From a virus, in the IMG/VR virus record IMGVR_UViG_3300028883_000044, positions 1 to 64,000 of that record: a stretch of DNA of 64,000 nt; one strand, 5' to 3'. Under the pieces are notes generated by a model. It saw only the letters and a list, made by a program, of their open reading frames with translations, ran no database searches and was not told the DNA's origin. Within the stretch, counting starts at the first letter, position 1, and the number at the start of each line of letters is the position of its first letter. A program made the position numbers and the translations under genes. Positions 212 through 54,530 of the stretch are shown one piece after another.

Positions 212-826
212 ATGCCAACAAAAGAAACACAACAAGTAGTAAAGGTAGTAAATCTAAATAATATGCAAGATAAGTTTAATGCTAGATTTATTCCCGAAAT
301 TGCAAGAGATTTCAATAAAAGTATAAGTAATACTTATACTGAATTAATTCAAACCCCTTTACTTATAAAGGGTGAATTAAATGGTATCAAATTTTCTCTT
401 GTTGAAAAAACAATTCCAGCTAGGAATAGAAACGGGAAGGGGGATAAAAGTCTGTGTAAACCCTATTTTACGGTAAAGGGTAAAGGGTGTTTTGGAAGTA
501 TAGAAGAATTTACTTTTCTACAAGCCTATTTAATTTCAATGCTTTACTATGCAAGCGGTATCAATGCGACTGCTTGCATGAGAAGTCTAGCGTTAAGGTT
601 TTTTAGGTTGAATATTGAAAGTATCAATATTCAATTTACTACTAAACTTAACTGGAATGATAATACCAGCATTACAAGTATAGAAGGTAATAGCATTAAT
701 AAAATTTATCAAAGAATTGAGATGCTAGCGGGATTAAGCAGTAGTATAAAAGTATGGAATGAGACTACCATTAAGGTAGCCTCAAAGAATACAAATAAAA
801 TAAAAGACTATTCTAATCTTGTATAG
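212..826 (+). CDS. hypothetical protein, basic, 204 aa
   Basis: ORF with upstream AGGAAGG RBS, own promoter and downstream hairpins; no motif recognised. Confidence 0.6.
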   Translation: MPTKETQQVVKVVNLNNMQDKFNARFIPEIARDFNKSISNTYTELIQTPLLIKGELNGIKFSLVEKTIPARNRNGKGDKSLCKPYFTVKGKGCFGSIEEFTFLQAYLISMLYYASGINATACMRSLALRFFRLNIESINIQFTTKLNWNDNTSITSIEGNSINKIYQRIEMLAGLSSSIKVWNETTIKVASKNTNKIKDYSNLV

Positions 827-897
827 AATAGTCTAAAAAAAGAAAAACCTTGCAATAACGGATTTTTAAAATCGCTCAAAATTGCAAGGTTTTTTTT
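805..897 (+). terminator. two tandem hairpins; the second is a probable bidirectional intrinsic terminator
   Basis: AGACTATTCTA/TAGAATAGTCT (805-834); AAAAACCTTGCAAT/ATTGCAAGGTTTTT (843-894) with T-run. Confidence 0.6.
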
Positions 898-1104: not shown

Positions 1105-1842
1105 TCACAAAGACTCATAAAGCTCATTCGCCAGGGACTTAGCTTCATCTAGCTTAATAAGAAGAGACTGGTACAATTCACCAGTATTCGTGGGGGTAGT
1201 ATTAGGTACAATTTTACTAAGATTAGACTTAAGCATAATATTCATATCTACACTGGTACCACTATTACCAATACCATTAACTCTCCCAGAGGCTGAGTAT
1301 TGCCATATAGTCCAGTTATTCCACCCTATAGGCATATAAGGACTCAAATCTCCCCAAGCCTTATAGTGAGCTACCCATAAAGGACAATCTCTCACCCAAG
1401 AAGGAATTTGAGTACCAAACCTATTCCAGTACCATTTAGCAGTGTACAAAATCGTGGGTTGGTTCCACTTCGCATAGATCGTATCTACGTATTCATAAAT
1501 ATTATTTAAATAATAATCCCTGCTAGAGGAACTCAGTAAAGAATATATACGTACATCCTCTACATCTATTACGGGATACTGCTCTCTTTTTTCAGTATGA
1601 TCCATAAAGTAAAGAGCCTGATCTTTACCTGAGACTTGTCCTCTCCAGAAATGGTACCCCGATCCTGATAAATTTATTTGTTTAGTACCGTTTAGATTGT
1701 TCTCTCCCTGATCGTCAATGAACCAATTACCCTCAGTAACTTTATAAAAAGCAAACTTTAAATCCAACGGGTCATCTTTGACCTGGTCCCAATCGATATT
1801 ACCTTGATAATGTGATACATCAATACCGTTGATAACTTCCAT
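1105..1842 (-). CDS. endolysin, GH25 muramidase
   Basis: GIDVSHYQG, KVTEG, GYHF, catalytic IDVE, LWVAHY, WQYS, VDMN motifs; P/T linker and C-terminal helix. Confidence 0.92.
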   Translation of the reverse strand: MEVINGIDVSHYQGNIDWDQVKDDPLDLKFAFYKVTEGNWFIDDQGENNLNGTKQINLSGSGYHFWRGQVSGKDQALYFMDHTEKREQYPVIDVEDVRIYSLLSSSSRDYYLNNIYEYVDTIYAKWNQPTILYTAKWYWNRFGTQIPSWVRDCPLWVAHYKAWGDLSPYMPIGWNNWTIWQYSASGRVNGIGNSGTSVDMNIMLKSNLSKIVPNTTPTNTGELYQSLLIKLDEAKSLANELYESL

Positions 1843-1843
1843 A

Positions 1844-2101
1844 TTAACTGTCTCCTTTTAATTCTTTTTCTAATTCAGATATTTTATTTTGTAACATAGA
1901 TATAAACTCCAACAGGTCAGCATTAACATTCCTTAATGTCTCTACCTCATGTTTACTTAACTGTAGAGCCTTATCCATTAACTTTTCAGATATTTCTGTC
2001 TCTGACTTTTTAGCTTCAGCTCGCCATTTTCTTAATTGCAGGAGGGCGACACCTAACGTACCAATCAGAGAAATGATAGCAACGATTATTCCAGCATCCA
2101 T
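1844..2101 (-). CDS. putative holin/antiholin: one N-terminal TM plus coiled coil
   Basis: hydrophobic residues 4-22, basic flank, directly upstream of the endolysin. Confidence 0.6.
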   Translation of the reverse strand: MDAGIIVAIISLIGTLGVALLQLRKWRAEAKKSETEISEKLMDKALQLSKHEVETLRNVNADLLEFISMLQNKISELEKELKGDS

Positions 2102-2111
2102 GTCTGACTCC

Positions 2112-2744
2112 TTAAACCAAAGTTACAGTACCGGTTATTGTTGGATGTCCATTAGTAGTACAAGTTCCTGCAACTCTTAGTTTAATTACTTCCCCTGATT
2201 TTTTAATAGCGTCTAAGGTATAGCAACATTTTGGAATCTCCCCAGAAAATCTCTGTCTTGACTTCTCTTTGAATACTTCCCTATAATCTGGATGTACTAT
2301 ATCTAAAAGATTCTTACCTATTATTTCTCCTATACTACCATACCCTAAAACCTCAGCCAATTTAAAATTAGCATACTCTAATATATAATCTGAATTGAAA
2401 ACATAAAACCCTATCTGAGAATTATCCATAATAGCATAGTGTTTATGTTGTAACTCTTCGATTATATTTGAAACTACATTAGAATCAATTTTACTTTCAT
2501 ACTTTTCTGTTATTAATTTTACTCCATAAATTATAATATCACTCACTAAGATAACAATAAAAAGCAAATAATCTATTTTATATTTATAAAATATATAGGG
2601 GGAAATAACCATACTCAATAATACTATTCCTAATAATAACCTTGGAATAGCTTCCCCTATTACAGCTATATAATTTTTTCGTATAGCTTTTATTATTAAA
2701 AGTATTGCTGAAATGATTGCCAGTATTCCTAAAATGGTATCCAT
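2112..2744 (-). CDS. membrane protein with about 3 TM helices and a C-terminal PAS domain
   Basis: AAGGAG RBS favours ATG at 2744; PAS signature IMDNSQIGFYVFN..LEYAN..LAEVLGY..EIIGKNLLDIVHPDYRE..KKSGEVI. Confidence 0.85.
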   Translation of the reverse strand: MDTILGILAIISAILLIIKAIRKNYIAVIGEAIPRLLLGIVLLSMVISPYIFYKYKIDYLLFIVILVSDIIIYGVKLITEKYESKIDSNVVSNIIEELQHKHYAIMDNSQIGFYVFNSDYILEYANFKLAEVLGYGSIGEIIGKNLLDIVHPDYREVFKEKSRQRFSGEIPKCCYTLDAIKKSGEVIKLRVAGTCTTNGHPTITGTVTLV

Positions 2745-4849: not shown

Positions 4850-6945
4850 TATTCCTCCCTTGTTATGTATGTTAGTGATGGTTGGAATATAATAGTATCT
4901 GGACTTATTGCATATCCTATAGGTTGTACAATAACATCCGCACCTTCTGGTACTGAAGAAACAATTTCACCCGATACAATAGAAACATATAATATATCCC
5001 CCTCTGTCCAATTCCAAGAATCATTCCTAGCTTTACCGTAACGCAAAATCGTTTTACTGTTTCCAGTTCCAGATTCAACTGCTAAAGCTGTACATATCAT
5101 TGTATTAATATTATCAGCACATGCTGTAGTATATGCACCTCCAGAGGCTATATAAAGAGGACATCCAAACCCTGTTAAATTTCCACTAATAGAAACTTTT
5201 TCAGAAAAACCTATAAAAGTATTGTTATTATCAGGGTCTCCTGAAGGAAATACTATTGAGTATTGATCTAATTCAATATCAGCAGTAAGTGTTGCACCTG
5301 AAGTATCATCAGTATCCCACCACAACTGCCCTTCAAAAGTTTCCTCTGGTGCGGTAGCGGATATATAAACTTCGGCACCAGTAGCCCCAGTTGGACCAGT
5401 AGGACCTGTGGGACCTGTGGGACCAGTAGGACCTGCTCCAACCCCCGATATTGTTACGATAGTTTTATCACTTCCGGAATCGTCAGTTACAGTGACCCCT
5501 GTCCCTACAAAATCTAAATTAGTCCGTTGATCCAAGGCTACGCCTTCATCCATTATCGTATGACCACCAGAACCACTGCCACCTGATATTGTTACATTAA
5601 CAGAACCGTCTCCGTTATCAGTAACCGTACCATTCGAGAACTTAATGGTATCGACATTAGACACCGAAGGTGTACCATCCTGTTCAGTTACTGTTATCGT
5701 ATTAGAACCGGTAGGACCTGTGAGACCTGTGGGACCTGTTGGACCAGTAGAACCGGCAGGACCGGTAGAACCTGTAGGACCTGTTGAACCTGTAGGACCT
5801 GTTGGACCGGTAGGACCGGTAGGACCTGTATCTCCCCTAGCACCTTCTGTTATAGGGGTATGAACATGGGAAGCATGGTCAGTACCATCATAATAAAAGG
5901 TAAAAACAACATCAGATGTTCTTGTAGTAACTGCGTATATTTTTATAACCAATCTATCTGTAATCTCTAAAGGTATATCAGCAGATTGTGTCATTGACAT
6001 ATCAATTACTTGAACATCTGTATTCTCAATAGAATCAGAAGTATAGTTAAATAATTCTGTTTCATTTCCTTCTGTATCTTTTTTATATAAATAAAATTTT
6101 AATTTAGAATCTCCGGTAGTATTATCTACTTTAGCATACATGTGAGCATGCCATACACCTGCTGGAATAGCTTCAATGCCCGGAGAGCCTTCAGAAGTTA
6201 CCCATTGAAATATAGGTGTTAATTGTGTTTCTCCATCAGTATTTTTACAAATAGCTGTTACTGTTGTTTCAACTCCACTAGGAATTGCCCTACGCCATTT
6301 TTCATAGTTTGCTATAGTGCCATCTGCAGTATCATGCCAATATAAAGCTATACCTACTGCGGCTTCACCTTCAGGACCAGTAGGACCGGTAGGTCCTGTT
6401 GGACCTGTAGGTCCTGTAGGTCCTGTAGGTCCTGGCACTCCACTTATAGTTACAACAGTAGTATCATCACCGGAATCATCTGTAACTGTTACAGCACTTC
6501 CGACAAAATTTAAATTTGACCTTTGAGTAAGTGGACTTCCTTCATCTTCTATAGTATGCCCACCTCCTGCACCTCCTGATATAGATACGCTTACAGAACC
6601 GTCCTCATTATCAGTAACTGTACCATTAGTAAATTTAATATTGCTAACTCCAGATATTGTTGGACTGCCATCCTCTTCTGAAACGGTTATCGTATTAGAA
6701 CCTGTAGGACCTGTAGTACCTGTGGGTCCTGTTGGACCTGCATCACCTGTATCACCTGCAGGACCTGTCGGACCAGTGGGACCGGTAGGACCTGTAGTTC
6801 CTGCGGCACCAGAACCAATTTTAGCTACATTTCCTAAATCGTCCTGTTGATATATACCATCATCTTTAGCGAATATTTGCCATTTACCTGTGGAGGGGGC
6901 AGAAGGATCAACACTTCTCTCATTGAATATAAATACCGAACCCAT
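4849..6945 (-). CDS. collagen-like (GPT)n tail fibre protein with an internal duplication
   Basis: four Gly-Pro-Thr runs; duplicated module of about 90 aa; TAP...GQLWWDT motif. Confidence 0.8.
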
Positions 6946-8027: not shown

Positions 8028-8699
8028 CTATCCTTCCAATATAAATACACCATCTATTTCCAACTGACCTTCTAATTCAAACTCAGGTCCGTTTATCATT
8101 GTATACCCACTAGGAATTACTACGGTTGTTCCAGAAGGTATATAATGCCTAATCATATAAAAACCTTTATGGTCTATAATTATTCTAGTAGAATCATTAG
8201 GTTCATCATCTTCTACTTGAATATTTTCCCCTATAAAATCTAATTGCGATCTCTGAGGCATAGCATTTCCACTATCTAAAATAGTATGCCCTCCACCACC
8301 GCCTGTCCCACTAACAGTACATTCTACAGTTACAGCATTTCCACTAGTGGTTACATTAAAGCTACTATCAAAATCTATAATAGTAATACCCGAAGCTATT
8401 ACAATACCTTCACTTTCAATAACAACTCCTCTACCACTTTCTAGAGTTGTAATCCTATATCTAATATTATTTAAATTATCTAGTAAACTTTCCCCACTAG
8501 TTGTAAATGTTATATCACTTTCTGTAAAATCATATGCTACTTTTGTTTGTGGAAGATACCCAATAAATCCGCCCGGAGGTCCACCAGCACCACCACCACT
8601 AGCACTTACTCCGCCAAGGTTTAAAGGTCTTGCTACAATACTAGCCTTTACATTTTCTAAAGCCCCAAACAATTCCCTTTCGAAATTATATATACTCAT
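8028..8699 (-). CDS. tail/baseplate-fibre connector protein sharing a module with the collagen fibre
   Basis: GGHTI.D.G....QRS.LDF.G module; position. Confidence 0.55.
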   Translation of the reverse strand: MSIYNFERELFGALENVKASIVARPLNLGGVSASGGGAGGPPGGFIGYLPQTKVAYDFTESDITFTTSGESLLDNLNNIRYRITTLESGRGVVIESEGIVIASGITIIDFDSSFNVTTSGNAVTVECTVSGTGGGGGHTILDSGNAMPQRSQLDFIGENIQVEDDEPNDSTRIIIDHKGFYMIRHYIPSGTTVVIPSGYTMINGPEFELEGQLEIDGVFILEG

Positions 8700-37016: not shown

Positions 37017-37238
37017 TTAATAGTAACATATTAAATAGAAGGGTATATAATACACTACAACAACAATTATATAAACAATTCCAAATATAGATGTGTATAT
37101 AAATTTATCAAAAGTTCCCAAATCATCTTTCAGCTTCATAATTTTCCACATCCAACGAAGAAAATTAATAGACATAGTAATAAAAAATAAAAACATAATT
37201 ATTGCTAACAGCAGTCTTATATAGAGCATGTACTCCAC
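37017..37238 (-). CDS. small 2-TM membrane protein
   Basis: two hydrophobic stretches. Confidence 0.55.
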   Translation of the reverse strand: MEYMLYIRLLLAIIMFLFFITMSINFLRWMWKIMKLKDDLGTFDKFIYTSIFGIVYIIVVVVYYIPFYLICYY

Positions 37239-39919: not shown

Positions 39920-41803
39920 ATGAATTTATTTAAAATCGAAACACTTAGTGATATTGCTAATTTTCAAAAAGATTTATCTACTACGGAATATATTATTTTA
40001 GATATTGAAACTAACGGATTAGATTGCTTTTCTAATGATTTGCTTTTAATACAATTAAAATTAAATGATAATTATTATTATGTTGAATATCAATTTGCTG
40101 ATAAAAAATTGGTTTATTATCTATTAGATTTAATTGATGCTTCTGGTAAAAAGGTTATCGGATTTAATATTAAATTTGATATGAAATTTATATTAAGTAA
40201 ATTAAATATTCTGCTAAGGAATGTTATTTGTATTATGTATACAGAAGTTATTTTAGAAAATGGTATAGGTAAAAGATTTTATTCACTACCTGAAATTGTT
40301 TCTAAGTATCTTGACATAGAAATGTCAAAGGATGTTAGAAATGATTTTATAGATTTTCCTAAAGAATCTCATATAAGTCAGCAAATGATTGAATATGGTT
40401 TAACAGATGTTTCTTATTTAGATGAAATATTTAAAAAGCAATCTGAATTTATCCATAAAGATAGATTAGAAGAAGTATTAGATTTAGAAATGAAACTACT
40501 ACCTGTAGTTTGTAGTATGGAAAATGAAGGTATTTCTTTAAATAAAGATTTATGGTCAGAGTTAGCTAATAATGCTAAAAAAGAATATGCTTCTTTAGAG
40601 AAAAAAATAAAGGAAAATATTTTATTATCTTATATAGATACATTGGATAAGGATTTATCTATAACAGAAATTTGTGATAATCTTAAAATAAGAATAACTA
40701 CTAAACGAGAAAAAACAGCTTTAGATTTAGTAAAAGATTATGATAATAAAAAAGAAATTGTATTAGAAAAATTTAATTTAAATTCTAATGCTCAATTAAA
40801 AAATTTATTAAATCTTGTAGGAGTACCTGTAAAGGATGTATCTGAAAAAACATTAAAGAAACTTATAAATCAATTTAGTTTTCTTGAAGATATTATTTCT
40901 TACAAGGATAAAGCAAAAGCTATATCATCTTTTGGTGAAGGTTTCTTTGATTATATTCACCCAAAGACTGGAAAGATTCATGCTACAGCTAATCAACTAA
41001 TGGCTCAAACAGGAAGATTTTCTTATAGTAATCCTAACCTTCAACAGATAAAACATGATAGTAAATATCGTGAAGCTTTTTATGTAGAAGATGGTTATAA
41101 GATAATCGCCGCAGATTATTCTCAACAAGAATTGAGATTGTTTGCCTCACTAACTAGAGAGCCAAAACTTATTGAAGCTTTTGTTAAAGGTATTGATCCA
41201 CATTCTATGACAGCTTCTATTGTCTTTGAAAAGGATATTGCTGAAATAACTCCAGATGAACGTTCTATAGGAAAGGCAGTTAATTTTGCTATTATCTATG
41301 GTACAACATCTATGGGAATGGCATATAATTTTTCTATCCCTTTGAAAGATGCTGAGAAATTTTTAAATAAATTTTGGTTAGGTTATAACATAGCAGGATA
41401 TTTTGTTACAGAAGTTAAGAATAAAATTATTCAAAATTATTATACTAGAACTCCAATAGGAAGAATAAGAAGATTTGAACAACAAGTTATATTTAAAGAT
41501 AGAGGAGATTATTATAGACATACAGAAGCAGTTAAACGAAAAGGTTTTAATACAATAGTCCAAGGATGTGGTGCAGATATTGTAAAGTATGCTCTAGTAA
41601 ATATGTTTAATAACAATCCTTTTGGAGACAAGTTTAAAATTATACTTACAGTACATGATGAAATTTTGGTAAAAGTTTCTGATGATATTGTAGAACCCGC
41701 TAAAGATTTTGTGATTAAAATTATGGAAGATGTGGAACAAATATTTTTAGGAGAAATTCCAGCAAAGGTAGATGGTAAAGTTTCTACATACTGGAAACAT
41801 TAA
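39920..41803 (+). CDS. polA: DNA polymerase family A with 3'-5' exonuclease, no 5'-3' exonuclease
   Basis: LDIETNG, FNIKFD, TGRFS..PNLQQI, ADYSQQELR, KAVNFAIIYG, TVHDE. Confidence 0.95.
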   Translation: MNLFKIETLSDIANFQKDLSTTEYIILDIETNGLDCFSNDLLLIQLKLNDNYYYVEYQFADKKLVYYLLDLIDASGKKVIGFNIKFDMKFILSKLNILLRNVICIMYTEVILENGIGKRFYSLPEIVSKYLDIEMSKDVRNDFIDFPKESHISQQMIEYGLTDVSYLDEIFKKQSEFIHKDRLEEVLDLEMKLLPVVCSMENEGISLNKDLWSELANNAKKEYASLEKKIKENILLSYIDTLDKDLSITEICDNLKIRITTKREKTALDLVKDYDNKKEIVLEKFNLNSNAQLKNLLNLVGVPVKDVSEKTLKKLINQFSFLEDIISYKDKAKAISSFGEGFFDYIHPKTGKIHATANQLMAQTGRFSYSNPNLQQIKHDSKYREAFYVEDGYKIIAADYSQQELRLFASLTREPKLIEAFVKGIDPHSMTASIVFEKDIAEITPDERSIGKAVNFAIIYGTTSMGMAYNFSIPLKDAEKFLNKFWLGYNIAGYFVTEVKNKIIQNYYTRTPIGRIRRFEQQVIFKDRGDYYRHTEAVKRKGFNTIVQGCGADIVKYALVNMFNNNPFGDKFKIILTVHDEILVKVSDDIVEPAKDFVIKIMEDVEQIFLGEIPAKVDGKVSTYWKH

Positions 41804-41813
41804 AGGAGGAAAA

Positions 41814-42155
41814 ATGGAAGATGGAATACTTGAACTATTGGCTATATTAAAAAGCATTGTTGAGAATGAATTTCCTAAGTTGTGGGAGATTTGCCAAATG
41901 CAAATACAATCAGAAATAAATGTCTGTCTCGGGTGGATAGGTTTTCTTGTTTTAGTTATTTTATTGTTAAGTGTGGTATTTGACCTCGATAATAAACTGT
42001 GGGAGACAGGCGTGGTAGCCTTTTTATGTGCATTAATTATATTTATTTCATTAATAGTTTTACCATTTTTATTTGAAAAGTATATACTTTTATCTAGTAA
42101 CCCTGAATACTATGCTTTATTAAGATTATCTGGTATATTAGGTTTGGGGCAATAA
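41814..42155 (+). CDS. 2-TM membrane protein
   Basis: AGGAGG RBS; two hydrophobic segments. Confidence 0.6.
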   Translation: MEDGILELLAILKSIVENEFPKLWEICQMQIQSEINVCLGWIGFLVLVILLLSVVFDLDNKLWETGVVAFLCALIIFISLIVLPFLFEKYILLSSNPEYYALLRLSGILGLGQ

Positions 42156-50506: not shown

Positions 50507-51073
50507 GTGAATAAGAAATATATAATTTTATTAGGAGGTAAGGCAGGTGTTGGAAAGACTACTACCGCAAATATTTTGCAAAAGCTTTTTGAAGATTGTG
50601 GAGTATCTAGTTGTATTTGTAATTTTGCTAATACTCTTAAGAAAGTCGCTAAAGAATCTTTTGGATGGGATGGCGAAAAAGATGATAAAGGTAGAAGATT
50701 ATTACAAGAAATAGGTAAGTGTGGTAGAAATTATTATGAAGATATTTGGGTAGATAGTATTTTGACCTCACATTTTATGGAGGATTATGATATAATTATA
50801 ATAGATGATTGGAGATTTTTAAATGAATCTACGAAGTGTAAAAATTTCCCTTATCGAAAAACTATTTTAGTTTATATTTCCGCAGAGGATAGAGAGATAC
50901 TTAAAGGTACACCTGCTTATGGTGATGTTTCTGAAACATCTTTACCTGATAATACTTCAATGTTATATGATTATGTTATTTATAACTCTCTAGATAATTG
51001 TCCGAATATAGAAACTCTTGGAGAGGTTGTTGAAAAAACTGTATTCAAAAATTTAATAAAAAAAAGGAGATAA
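50507..51073 (+). CDS. deoxynucleoside monophosphate kinase
   Basis: GKAGVGKTT, FANTLK, RRLLQEIG, IDDWRFLNE, SE. Confidence 0.85.
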   Translation: MNKKYIILLGGKAGVGKTTTANILQKLFEDCGVSSCICNFANTLKKVAKESFGWDGEKDDKGRRLLQEIGKCGRNYYEDIWVDSILTSHFMEDYDIIIIDDWRFLNESTKCKNFPYRKTILVYISAEDREILKGTPAYGDVSETSLPDNTSMLYDYVIYNSLDNCPNIETLGEVVEKTVFKNLIKKRR

Positions 51074-53871: not shown

Positions 53872-54294
53872 ATGGGACATAATAGTTTTATACCTTATAA
53901 TATATATTTATCCGGCGGTATGAAATCAAACTGGCAGGATAAAATTATTGAAGCATTATCAGATATTAATGCTAGAATTAAATTTATTGATCCTCGAAAG
54001 AACGGTTTAAAAAATCCTGTTAGTTATACTTATTGGGATATTAATTCTATTAGGAATAGTGATATTATATTTGCATACCTTGAATCTGATAACCCTTCTG
54101 GTTTAGGTTTAGCCACAGAAGTGGGATATGGTGCAGGTTTTGGGTGCTTAACTATATTTATAAATGAGAAATCTAAAGATAAGCATACCCATTTTATAGA
54201 GGAAGTAGCAACACTTTCTTATAGAGATTTAAATGAAGGTATTGCTATGCTTAAAAATATATGTGAGAATGGTTTAGTGAGAGGTATAAGATGA
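53872..54294 (+). CDS. nucleoside 2-deoxyribosyltransferase / dNMP N-glycosidase family protein
   Basis: IYLSGG, DP, WDI..I..SDIIFA, G...EVGY. Confidence 0.75.
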   Translation: MGHNSFIPYNIYLSGGMKSNWQDKIIEALSDINARIKFIDPRKNGLKNPVSYTYWDINSIRNSDIIFAYLESDNPSGLGLATEVGYGAGFGCLTIFINEKSKDKHTHFIEEVATLSYRDLNEGIAMLKNICENGLVRGIR

Positions 54295-54530
54295 TACTAT
54301 ATATTGTTGAATATATTATTGCAATTATTATAGCAGTTATTATTGCAATTATTATAGATAAAGCAAACGATCGTAAATTTATTGAAGAAGAAAAAAACAA
54401 TTTAGATGAAGGAAAAATAGTCTTGACAAAAGAAGAATATCGTAGTATACTAAAAGAAAGACAGAAATATCTGTTGGCTTATTATAAATTATCGGATATG
54501 TTGATTGAGGAAAGGAATAAGAAAAATTAA
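54291..54530 (+). CDS. single-TM protein
   Basis: hydrophobic N-terminus. Confidence 0.55.
   Translation: MILYIVEYIIAIIIAVIIAIIIDKANDRKFIEEEKNNLDEGKIVLTKEEYRSILKERQKYLLAYYKLSDMLIEERNKKN
54423..54451 (+). promoter_or_regulatory. internal sigma70 promoter upstream of the primase
   Basis: TTGACA-17-TATACT. Confidence 0.6.

Follow-up and report, generated by a model that had tools for sequence, protein, structure and literature searches.

What would a membrane-anchored PAS protein without an output domain do in a phage, two genes ahead of an endolysin? In the usual view, a holin is a simple molecular clock, set off once its concentration becomes critical. To our knowledge, dependence of lysis timing on a signal is well understood in T4 lysis inhibition alone, with superinfection being sensed from the periplasm. 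The question is raised by IMG/VR record IMGVR_UViG_3300028883_000044, an 80.8-kb phage record with an estimated completeness of approximately 89% and a probable origin in marine sediment. Among sequencing runs, a single DNA source was listed for it, a marine sediment metagenome from which it may derive, and none of RNA. We analyzed its first 64,000 nucleotides, hereafter the window. The original prediction for this locus was that the PAS domain controls the oligomeric state of its own transmembrane (TM) domain or of an adjacent holin, which would make the protein a metabolite- or redox-sensing holin or antiholin. Our analysis indicates that the PAS protein and the small protein encoded next to it are probably the holin-type step that decides the time of the burst, and it does not support the redox part of the proposal.

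Results

Gene order and the endolysin

Three minus-strand genes follow one another with gaps of 10 bp and then 1 bp. They encode a protein that joins three TM helices to a PAS domain (3TM-PAS), a protein with one TM helix, and a GH25 endolysin. This anatomy, order and spacing had been described in the original prediction and are borne out by the open reading frame (ORF) coordinates, profile scores and AF2 models. The PAS gene, at 2112..2744, encodes 210 amino acids; its stop codon occupies 2112-2114, its ATG at 2744 stands behind AAGGAGA (2751-2757), and a gene call of 210 amino acids is present in a protein database. Its position after the tail genes is the holin slot. We found no dual-start motif in this gene, the upstream TTG at 2771 having no ribosome-binding site. 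The partner gene of 85 codons was assigned to 1844..2101 by ORF, hydropathy and AF2 model, with weak PHROG matches. The three genes are best explained, in our view, as a lysis cassette belonging to a tailed phage that is uncultured and of virulent type.

The third gene, at 1105..1842, encodes a GH25 muramidase of 245 amino acids, as indicated by matches to PF01183 (112.9 bits against a cut-off of 27, E = 2.8e-32) and to the endolysin family phrog_291 (2.3e-32). Our search of this endolysin for a TM or N-terminal hydrophobic segment, a signal peptide, an SAR (signal-anchor-release) helix or a recognized wall-binding domain returned nothing. Lacking an export signal, the enzyme depends on a lesion of the membrane for its access to the wall. 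On the same strand, a terminator-like hairpin predicted from a consensus scan (805..834, approximately 270 nt past the endolysin stop) would end the late transcript. Another long palindrome, imperfect and bearing a T-run, is found at approximately 850-895.

Anatomy and predicted topology of the PAS protein

The AF2 model of the PAS protein (pLDDT 92.9) contains helices at residues 2-23 and 26-47, a short helix at 49-55, an unbroken helix at 57-107 with block means of pLDDT between 83 and 94, and a PAS fold at 112-209. Hydropathy, the AF2 helices and K+R counts place the membrane part at residues 1-80 (2505..2744, minus strand). Residues 81-107 (2424..2504, minus strand) form an amphipathic linker helix in the AF2 model, which prolongs TM3 without a break and leads into the PAS N-cap. 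The remainder of the protein up to its end, residues 108-210 (2115..2423, minus strand), is the predicted cytoplasmic PAS domain, which scores above curated cut-offs (PF00989, 29.9 bits against 22.6; TIGR00229, 46.1 against 22.9). Its modeled sheet is five-stranded and antiparallel (112-117, 121-125, 172-180, 186-197 and 201-209, with helices between), and a Foldseek search of the PDB matched PAS domains with E values between 3e-9 and 3e-7, of the order of 1e-8 to 1e-9. Scans with Pfam and NCBIfam revealed no output domain, whether of a kinase (DHp/HisKA, HATPase_c), of a cyclase or of another kind, in the protein, which ends 10 residues past the last PAS strand.

An N-out/C-in topology with three TM helices is predicted from hydropathy, the AF2 model and counts under the positive-inside rule in 24 family members. 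The family means for K+R are 0.12 in the N-terminal tail, about 3 in loop 1, 0.42 in loop 2 and 4.0 after TM3. Conserved features of the membrane part are a basic loop after TM1 (K-x-I-x-KKD-x-S), an Arg in TM2 and a Ser-Asp in TM3. The distance from the end of TM3 to the PAS motif is likewise conserved, being 42 residues in every locus that could be scored except one, where it is 38.

What the PAS domain might sense

PAS domains that carry a cofactor are recognized by hallmarks such as the proximal His in F-alpha of the heme proteins FixL and DOS, the Cys of the LOV motif NCRFL, and the PYP Cys. Within the present family we found no conserved His in F-alpha (residues 152-167), no LOV-type Cys motif and no other sign of flavin or heme. 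The residues that are conserved belong to the generic S-box/PAC scaffold, with E123, N126, N198, G199, H200 and T202 invariant. In profile comparisons, the domain comes closest to those of BMAL1, ARNT and HIF, which are bHLH-PAS protein-interaction domains. Given these matches and the missing cofactor signature, the domain may be a mere dimerization scaffold.

The redox reading had drawn on three cysteines in the PAS domain (KCCY and GTC) and on adjacent Rex-like boxes. The cysteines are indeed present in the protein encoded in the window, but they are not conserved across the family. The palindromes exist as well: two of 18 bp lie beyond the endolysin stop at 909-926 and 995-1012. Boxes of the form TTGTGAA-N4-TTCACAA, the operator of the NADH-sensing regulator Rex, number one perfect and two with one mismatch; they too are located past the endolysin stop, and also fit the CRP-type pattern TGTGA-N6-TCACA. 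None of the related loci has such boxes, which were seen in this phage only. With neither conserved cysteines nor a cofactor signature, and with the boxes not accompanying the module in related loci, we see no support for a redox or metabolite cue.

Extent and origin of the PAS protein family

Homologs of the PAS protein have the same architecture, 197-231 amino acids and 25-41% identity, and were seen only in uncultured phage contigs. An exhaustive HMMER search yielded approximately 19 full-length representatives (209-231 amino acids, 28-41% identity). Viral and metagenome contigs added more members, found in part with a degenerate DNA pattern for T-x-NGH-x-TITG that catches approximately 60% of members. 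Sequences in the family have diverged to a mean identity of approximately 27%, and the whole PAS fold has been kept. Using a word-indexed protein search, we recovered the PAS protein itself alone at similar length, the longer proteins being weak matches to kinase PAS domains; the profile version of this search recovered five family members. The ESM Atlas gave generic PAS clusters alone. When the PAS protein and three partner proteins were compared by tblastn with 50,697 cultured phage records, no match was found. Fold matches in BFVD, to proteins of Cellulophaga phages phi19:1 and phi18:3, were set aside as candidates: no sequence match was found in NC_021799, and the candidate ORFs lie away from lysis genes.

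The nearest PAS domains of histidine kinases are only 25-32% identical over the PAS part. With this low identity and a conserved phage family, the protein is not a recent fragment of a host histidine kinase, an origin that would have undermined the original prediction.

An 85-residue protein is the constant neighbor of the PAS protein

The AF2 model of the 85-residue protein is a single helix from residue 3 to 84 (pLDDT 93.7). The sequence begins with a short acidic N-terminal tail and one TM segment that ends in a conserved Gln, and includes a basic patch (RKWRAEAKK). A conserved motif, AL-L(N/S)K(Q/H)E-(D/E)TLR--N--L, precedes a coiled-coil-like helix. Among PHROGs, weak matches were to families with one TM helix and a coiled coil (phrog_8369, 4e-7). 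The N-terminal tail has no positive charge and three to five K/R fall within the 15 residues after the TM segment, predicting an N-out/C-in topology. Since the PAS protein has the same predicted orientation, the PAS domain and the long helix of its partner would lie on the same cytoplasmic face of the membrane.

In all 21 distinct loci that have downstream DNA, a homolog of this protein is encoded by the next gene after the PAS gene. Between loci, identity among the PAS proteins is correlated with identity among their partners (Mantel r = 0.43, p about 2e-4). We observed no clear correlation between spacer lengths in the PAS protein and in the partner, or between Cys in the C-terminal tail of PAS and Cys in the partner. 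The conserved gene order is in part inheritance and not independent recurrence, since the carrier phages share tail-gene motifs and make up one related clade. Given that the helix protein is the obligate neighbor of the PAS protein, it is reasonable to suppose, as originally predicted, that PAS controls either the membrane domain of its own chain or the holin beside it.

Linkage of the pair to lysis genes

In approximately 12 loci the pair has an endolysin gene as its neighbor, so that the homologs are indeed linked to lysis genes, as a role in lysis would have it. The endolysins lie upstream or downstream of the pair and are of the GH25, GH25+SH3_3 or M23+SH3_3 type. SH3_3 wall-binding domains are typical of phages of monoderm hosts. 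Counting against a lysis role, the GH25 endolysin of a complete 94-kb relative, G001, is approximately 32 kb from the pair, and in several other loci no endolysin is within view of it. The distant endolysin of G001 has no TM neighbor.

Neither the PAS protein nor its partner matched a described holin family in Pfam, PHROGs or NCBIfam, and among the scanned proteins of the 80.8-kb record no match to a known holin family was found in Pfam or PHROGs. Other small TM ORFs, detected by hydropathy, are at 37017-37238, 41772-42155, 50547-50714 and 54291-54530 in the window and at 74308-74469 in the rest of the record; none of the five is close to the endolysin or has a PHROG match. Some relatives have an extra small ORF with two or three TM segments near the pair that could be the true holin (86 amino acids in L066, 87 in L004 and 61 in L068).

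Discussion

Comparison with known lysis proteins

The closest genetic parallel is found in F1-cluster mycobacteriophages, where LysF1b, a 1TM protein with N-out/C-in topology, is lysis-competent alone and is modulated by its multi-TM partner LysF1a, both being needed for properly timed lysis (PMC13056207). As in the cassette described here, two holin-like membrane genes, one of them multi-spanning, are adjacent, a likeness of architecture. LysF1b and the 85-residue protein share a single N-terminal TM segment, a short external N-terminal tail and a C-terminal domain that faces the cytoplasm, the topology of the latter protein being predicted, and both are encoded in lysis cassettes. LysF1a, in contrast, has 88 amino acids and two TM segments and no folded domain, whereas the PAS protein has three TM segments and a PAS domain. 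In the holin gp11 of mycobacteriophage D29, as summarized in PMC9671378, the C-terminal coiled coil matters for oligomerization and timing; there, two TM segments and the coiled coil are on one chain, whereas in the present pair a second, bitopic protein contributes the long helix.

The PAS protein resembles class I holins such as lambda S105 in its three predicted TM segments, N-out/C-in topology, N-terminal tail without positive charge and location in a late operon beside an endolysin. The holes made by class I holins are lethal, can be triggered by energy poisons and release endolysin. However, class I holins have about 100 amino acids (about 70-150) and a short, highly charged C-terminal tail, whereas the C-terminal 130 residues of the PAS protein are linker helix and folded PAS domain, which is unlike a classical class I holin and counts against a holin-type role; it also has neither homology to them nor a dual start. 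In T4 lysis inhibition, which involves the holin T, the periplasmic antiholin RI and the cytoplasmic antiholin RIII (PMC11413866, PMC8385771), a globular domain that receives information governs holin triggering, which lets the time of lysis respond to a signal; the same may hold here. Antiholins, among them T4 RI and RIII, lambda S107 and P1 LydB, bind their cognate holin and delay its triggering. The T4 proteins are unrelated and have no PAS fold, and their sensing is periplasmic and reports superinfection, whereas both large domains of the present pair are predicted to be cytoplasmic. Membrane sensor histidine kinases in which PAS comes immediately after the last TM helix, such as MASE3-PAS kinases (NF047874), share with the PAS protein a last TM helix that runs into the PAS N-cap. 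NF047874 matches it weakly over residues 15-198, at 33.8 bits, which falls well short of the cut-off of 560 for that family; DHp and ATPase domains are missing from the PAS protein.

Among cultured phages, the gene g078 of Cellulophaga phage phi14:2 (NC_021806.1) is annotated as a "PAS fold protein". Its product consists of one TM segment, a coiled coil and a PAS domain, and the gene extends over the beginning of the endolysin gene g077. Like the PAS protein, it is membrane-anchored and without output domain; it lies directly upstream of an endolysin, and its N-terminal TM segment and coiled coil are similar in form to the 85-residue partner. It differs in being a single chain, in preceding a GH19 endolysin and in belonging to a crAss-like phage of a Bacteroidota host, and is itself uncharacterized. 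Comparison of g078 with the present families by hhalign was not significant (probabilities of 18% and 6%).

Proposed mechanism and alternatives

By analogy with LysF1b and LysF1a, we lean toward a holin-type membrane module in which the bitopic 85-residue protein is the main hole-former and 3TM-PAS is a cytoplasmic timer akin to a co-holin or antiholin. The two co-inherited proteins would supply the lesion for the GH25 endolysin, the bitopic protein forming the hole. Dimerization or a conformational change of PAS would be passed on through the rigid helix of TM3 and linker, and would set the time at which the membrane parts oligomerize and trigger, presumably through physical contact between the two proteins. 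A more tentative extension, which we consider possible but doubtful, is that 3TM-PAS receives a signal on the cytoplasmic side and acts directly on a holin of two components. On reading a cue from metabolites, redox or energy state, PAS would shift the TM3-linker helix and thereby release or block the bitopic hole-former, and burst time would follow the state of the host. The opposite proposal is about equally tentative: the pair would act in lysis with a PAS domain that senses nothing, serving as a constitutive dimerization or docking scaffold, with timing set by protein accumulation alone as in ordinary holins. The generic S-box/PAC conservation, the missing heme, flavin or LOV signature, the variable cysteines and the protein-interaction domains among the best profiles are all consistent with such a scaffold. 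Against it, the whole fold is retained at so low a mean identity, the invariant polar residues exceed the needs of a simple tether, and many PAS ligands are not predictable from sequence.

An exchange of roles, with 3TM-PAS itself the holin, PAS replacing the usual charged tail and the 85-residue protein serving as antiholin or accessory, seems unlikely to us. Its predicted topology is that of S105-type holins, its TM segments carry conserved polar and charged residues (the Arg of TM2 and the Ser-Asp of TM3) and its gene sits in the holin slot; against this, it is twice the usual holin size, class I homology and a dual-start motif are missing, and in the genetically dissected pair of a multi-TM and a 1-TM protein the lysis-competent one is the 1-TM protein (PMC13056207). 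Less likely still is a function outside lysis, such as a late membrane module for superinfection exclusion or for modifying host membrane or signaling, with the real holin elsewhere or in the missing 11% of the genome. The distance from the endolysin in G001, the unlinked loci and the other small TM ORFs of the window and record would fit such a function. Yet endolysins of two unrelated catalytic types abut the pair, on either side, in the approximately 12 linked loci, the distant endolysin of G001 is equally without a TM neighbor, and the other TM ORFs match no PHROG. In Gram-negative hosts, the outer membrane is disrupted by an Rz-type complex, whose subunit in the inner membrane is the i-spanin; it is N-in/C-out, with a periplasmic coiled coil, and is accompanied by an o-spanin lipoprotein gene. 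That the 85-residue protein is an i-spanin, in a cassette from a phage of a diderm host, is very improbable. The protein resembles Rz in its N-terminal TM segment and coiled coil, and one homolog weakly matches TIGR03495 LysB (16 bits, the cut-off being 92.75; E = 0.009). The charge distribution predicts a cytoplasmic helix, no lipoprotein ORF is embedded or adjacent, 85 residues is short for an i-spanin, and the endolysins of the relatives bear SH3_3.

Implications

In the literature on PAS domains with holins, antiholins or endolysins, we found no description of a membrane PAS protein in a phage lysis cassette. If it is true that this conserved holin-type module turns a PAS domain toward the cytoplasm, it would give phages a route to couple burst time to host physiology. 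Burst size, the ecology of phages whose sediment hosts grow slowly, and the engineering of lysis switches would all be affected by such coupling. The PAS family provides concrete constructs to test, and the fused gene of the cultured phage phi14:2, with one TM segment, coiled coil and PAS domain, is a tractable entry point. If the signal-gated reading is correct, the family and g078 of phi14:2 together would represent a class of lysis clocks, gated by signals, that is widespread and has so far gone undescribed.

Late-strand cassette and predicted properties of its products

The IMG/VR record whose bases 1-64000 make up the window is 80.8 kb long and rated 89% complete. Terminase, portal, glycosyltransferase and tail genes occupy its minus strand from ~39.5 kb down to position 1105, and between 39.9 and 60 kb the plus strand encodes DNA polymerase, DnaB and ribonucleotide reductase; the carrier is a virulent-type tailed phage. 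We found no close cultured relative, and the stretch is contained in just one public sequencing run, a marine sediment metagenome from which the DNA may derive. Three closely packed genes, each with a strong Shine-Dalgarno sequence ahead of it, close the late strand: those for the 3TM-PAS protein P0001 (2112..2744, minus strand, 210 aa), its bitopic partner (1844..2101, minus strand, 85 aa) and the endolysin (1105..1842, minus strand, 245 aa). The coordinates, the gaps of 10 and 1 bp and the cysteine motifs of the original prediction were all reproduced in the window sequence.

The 245-aa product belongs to the GH25 muramidases (PF01183, E 2.8e-32) and also matches endolysin PHROGs. A hydropathy scan revealed no hydrophobic N-terminus, indicating that the enzyme is unable to exit the cytoplasm unaided. 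P0001 scores above the curated PAS cut-offs (PF00989, 29.9 versus 22.6 bits; TIGR00229, 46.1 versus 22.9 bits), and no output domain was found in it. The AlphaFold2 model of P0001, built from 24 family members (pLDDT 92.9), has helices at residues 2-23 and 26-47, a short helix at 49-55, and an unbroken helix at 57-107 that comprises TM3 and a linker and leads into a PAS fold of canonical form spanning 112-209. Searches of the PDB by Foldseek and by sequence profile returned generic PAS domains only (15-21% identity), including heme PAS, FixL, DOS, HIF/ARNT/BMAL1, LOV and NifL. The partner was modelled as a single helix (residues 3-84, pLDDT 93.7) with a membrane segment at its N-terminus.

Charge distribution was used to predict topology. 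Across the 24 PAS-protein family members, K+R residues average 0.12 in the N-terminal tail and 0.42 in the loop joining TM2 to TM3, against ~3 around the loop between TM1 and TM2 and 4.0 beyond TM3; the family is therefore predicted to be N-out with a cytoplasmic PAS domain. Likewise, the scorable partner proteins have no K or R ahead of the membrane helix and 3-5 in the next 15 residues, for which reason they are predicted to be N-out/C-in. Together, these predictions would place the PAS domain and the partner helix on a common cytoplasmic face.

Conservation of the PAS protein family

An exhaustive HMMER search for P0001 homologues, covering 1.84 billion representatives, returned PAS domains of long kinases in their thousands, ~25-32% identical over the PAS part only, together with ~19 proteins of 209-231 aa whose alignment to P0001 (28-41% identity) runs end to end and takes in the membrane part. 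Since this end-to-end family exists and the kinase PAS domains are only ~25-32% identical, the possibility raised with the original prediction, that the gene is a recent fragment of a host kinase, fails. Residues 15-198 (window 2115-2700; TM2, TM3 and PAS) weakly match an NCBIfam model of MASE3-PAS sensor histidine kinases (33.8 bits versus a cut-off of 560), which hints that the protein may have arisen long ago from the segment of a host sensor kinase nearest the membrane.

The family alignment shows conservation of the basic loop that follows TM1, of an Arg within TM2, and of both a Ser-Asp within TM3 and a KY where that helix ends. The usual S-box residues are kept, and a T-x-NGH-x-TITG hairpin is invariant at the site of the PAC 'DIT' motif. 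In the A1 and A3 family alignments, roughly half of the PAS-protein homologues terminate in a short acidic stretch containing a single Cys (e.g. ...EQCGE), and an L-x-x-C-E-like motif lies near the C-terminus of most of the partner proteins inspected (from loci L002, L003, L004, L007, L066, L076, L083, L094, L097, L115, L116 and L117). The presence of one showed no clear correlation with that of the other, and the window's pair has neither.

Signal sensing and the Rex/CRP-type palindromes

The redox theme that had been proposed for the PAS domain was not borne out: the window's PAS cysteines vary within the family, which has no conserved Cys, F-alpha His or LOV motif, and neither the alignment nor a profile search yielded pointers to redox, oxygen or light sensing. 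The best profile matches are protein-interaction PAS domains.

The Rex-like boxes cited in support of that theme are real palindromes. A perfect TTGTGAA-N4-TTCACAA (Rex/CRP-FNR type) lies at 995-1012, and copies with one mismatch lie at 909-926 and at 80569-80586 of the whole record. The two in the window are located past the endolysin stop, and none was found in 118 related loci; judged by position and distribution, the palindromes are probably not part of the lysis module. All three cluster near the record ends, in the interval separating the late terminator region from the early genes, and may instead act as operators controlling early or divergent transcription.

Gene context in related phages

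Related loci were collected from three sources: a search of viral contigs (4 loci), and a degenerate DNA pattern applied to genome contigs (1 of 31 matches true) and to metagenome contigs (22 of 80 true). After deduplication, the census held 22 distinct loci, window included. A bitopic protein is encoded by the next same-strand gene after the PAS gene in all 21 loci with downstream DNA, starting within ~40 bp either side of the PAS-gene stop and measuring 85-148 aa where complete. These proteins and the window's 85-aa protein form one family: a conserved Gln closes the TM of its members, which also share the motif AL-LNKQE-DTLR--N--L and a basic patch. The motif starts 29 residues past the Gln-bearing TM end in 9 of 13 scorable loci. 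Pairwise identities of the PAS protein and the partner co-vary (Mantel r 0.43, p ~2e-4, 15 loci).

An endolysin adjoins the pair, upstream or downstream, in ~12 loci (GH25, GH25+SH3_3, M23+SH3_3 and, once, the SH3_3 end of a cut gene), so the concern that homologues might be unlinked to lysis genes does not hold. One relative with a complete 94-kb genome has its GH25 endolysin gene ~32 kb away from the pair, with no membrane-protein neighbour, and several short or tail-flanked loci have no endolysin in view. A tail-protein N-terminal motif, LYLGG(V/I)..GGG.GGPPGGF(I/V)G, occurs at window 8028-8699 and in homologues in L002, L003, L051, L079 and L097; such common N-termini indicate that the phages carrying the PAS module belong to a single broad clade of relatives, and the conserved gene order is therefore partly inheritance.

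In several relatives, the pair is followed by a gene for a short conserved protein (beginning MPYN/MPYG...GGD-KEN/S-D-WME-C...AICK): L002 (6053-6265), L094, L097 and L004, where it is doubled (6025-6528 and 6531-6761) with one copy fused to an HNH/AP2-like part. Locus L007 (LNGC01000144.1, 3984 bp), in a 'Candidatus Methanofastidiosum' MAG, carries genes for a tail fibre, 3TM-PAS protein, partner and GH25 endolysin; it most likely belongs to a bacterial phage and was wrongly binned, rather than being archaeal DNA.

A candidate holin system

No described holin family matched among the proteins scanned from the window's own record, and its five further small TM ORFs all lie far from the endolysin and are without PHROG match. 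Because the signal-less endolysin needs a holin-type lesion and the pair are the cassette's only membrane proteins, we read the pair as a holin system, a proposal that, taken as a whole, we favor slightly. It is drawn wholly from anatomy and gene context, and falls within holin/antiholin-type lysis control. By analogy with the mycobacteriophage systems described below, the partner is the likelier hole-former. The GH25 enzyme would reach the wall via a lesion formed by the partner; the 3TM-PAS protein would act as a co-holin or antiholin-like timer, and the state of its PAS domain, dimeric or ligand-bound, would pass along the rigid TM3-linker helix.

Among the systems compared, the best precedent is that of F1-cluster mycobacteriophages, in which LysF1b, a bitopic, N-out/C-in, lysis-competent protein triggerable by energy poison, is modulated by the multi-TM LysF1a (PMC13056207). 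In the D29 holin, a cytoplasmic coiled coil is described as serving oligomerisation and timing (PMC9671378). A reversal of roles, in which the PAS protein would itself be the holin and resemble class I, seems to us less likely. That the partner is instead an i-spanin is unlikely given its predicted topology, its small size and the absence of a lipoprotein ORF. Some relatives have extra small TM ORFs that could be additional or alternative holins: an 86-aa two-TM ORF between the partner and GH25 genes of L066 (876-1133, minus strand), and 2-3-TM ORFs of 87 and 61 aa near the pair in L004 (3962-4225, plus strand) and L068 (2535-2720, plus strand). None of these has a PHROG match.

Comparison with phage phi14:2

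A literature text search found no relevant paper linking PAS with a holin, antiholin or endolysin. In phi14:2, a cultured crAss-like phage of Cellulophaga, gene g078 is annotated 'PAS fold protein' but is unstudied. Its product combines 1 TM, a coiled coil and PAS_4 (22.8 bits, cut-off 23.1) in a single chain, and the gene overlaps the start of the GH19 endolysin gene g077 by 4 bp (L124 3231-5339; NC_021806.1 69230-71338). The downstream g076 product has a signal-anchor-like helix at its N-terminus. The g078/g077 cassette contains no further holin candidate. The g078 product looks like the two functions of the window's pair joined together, although its homology to the window families is not significant. 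The 3TM-PAS/partner module is of real interest for phage-lysis specialists.
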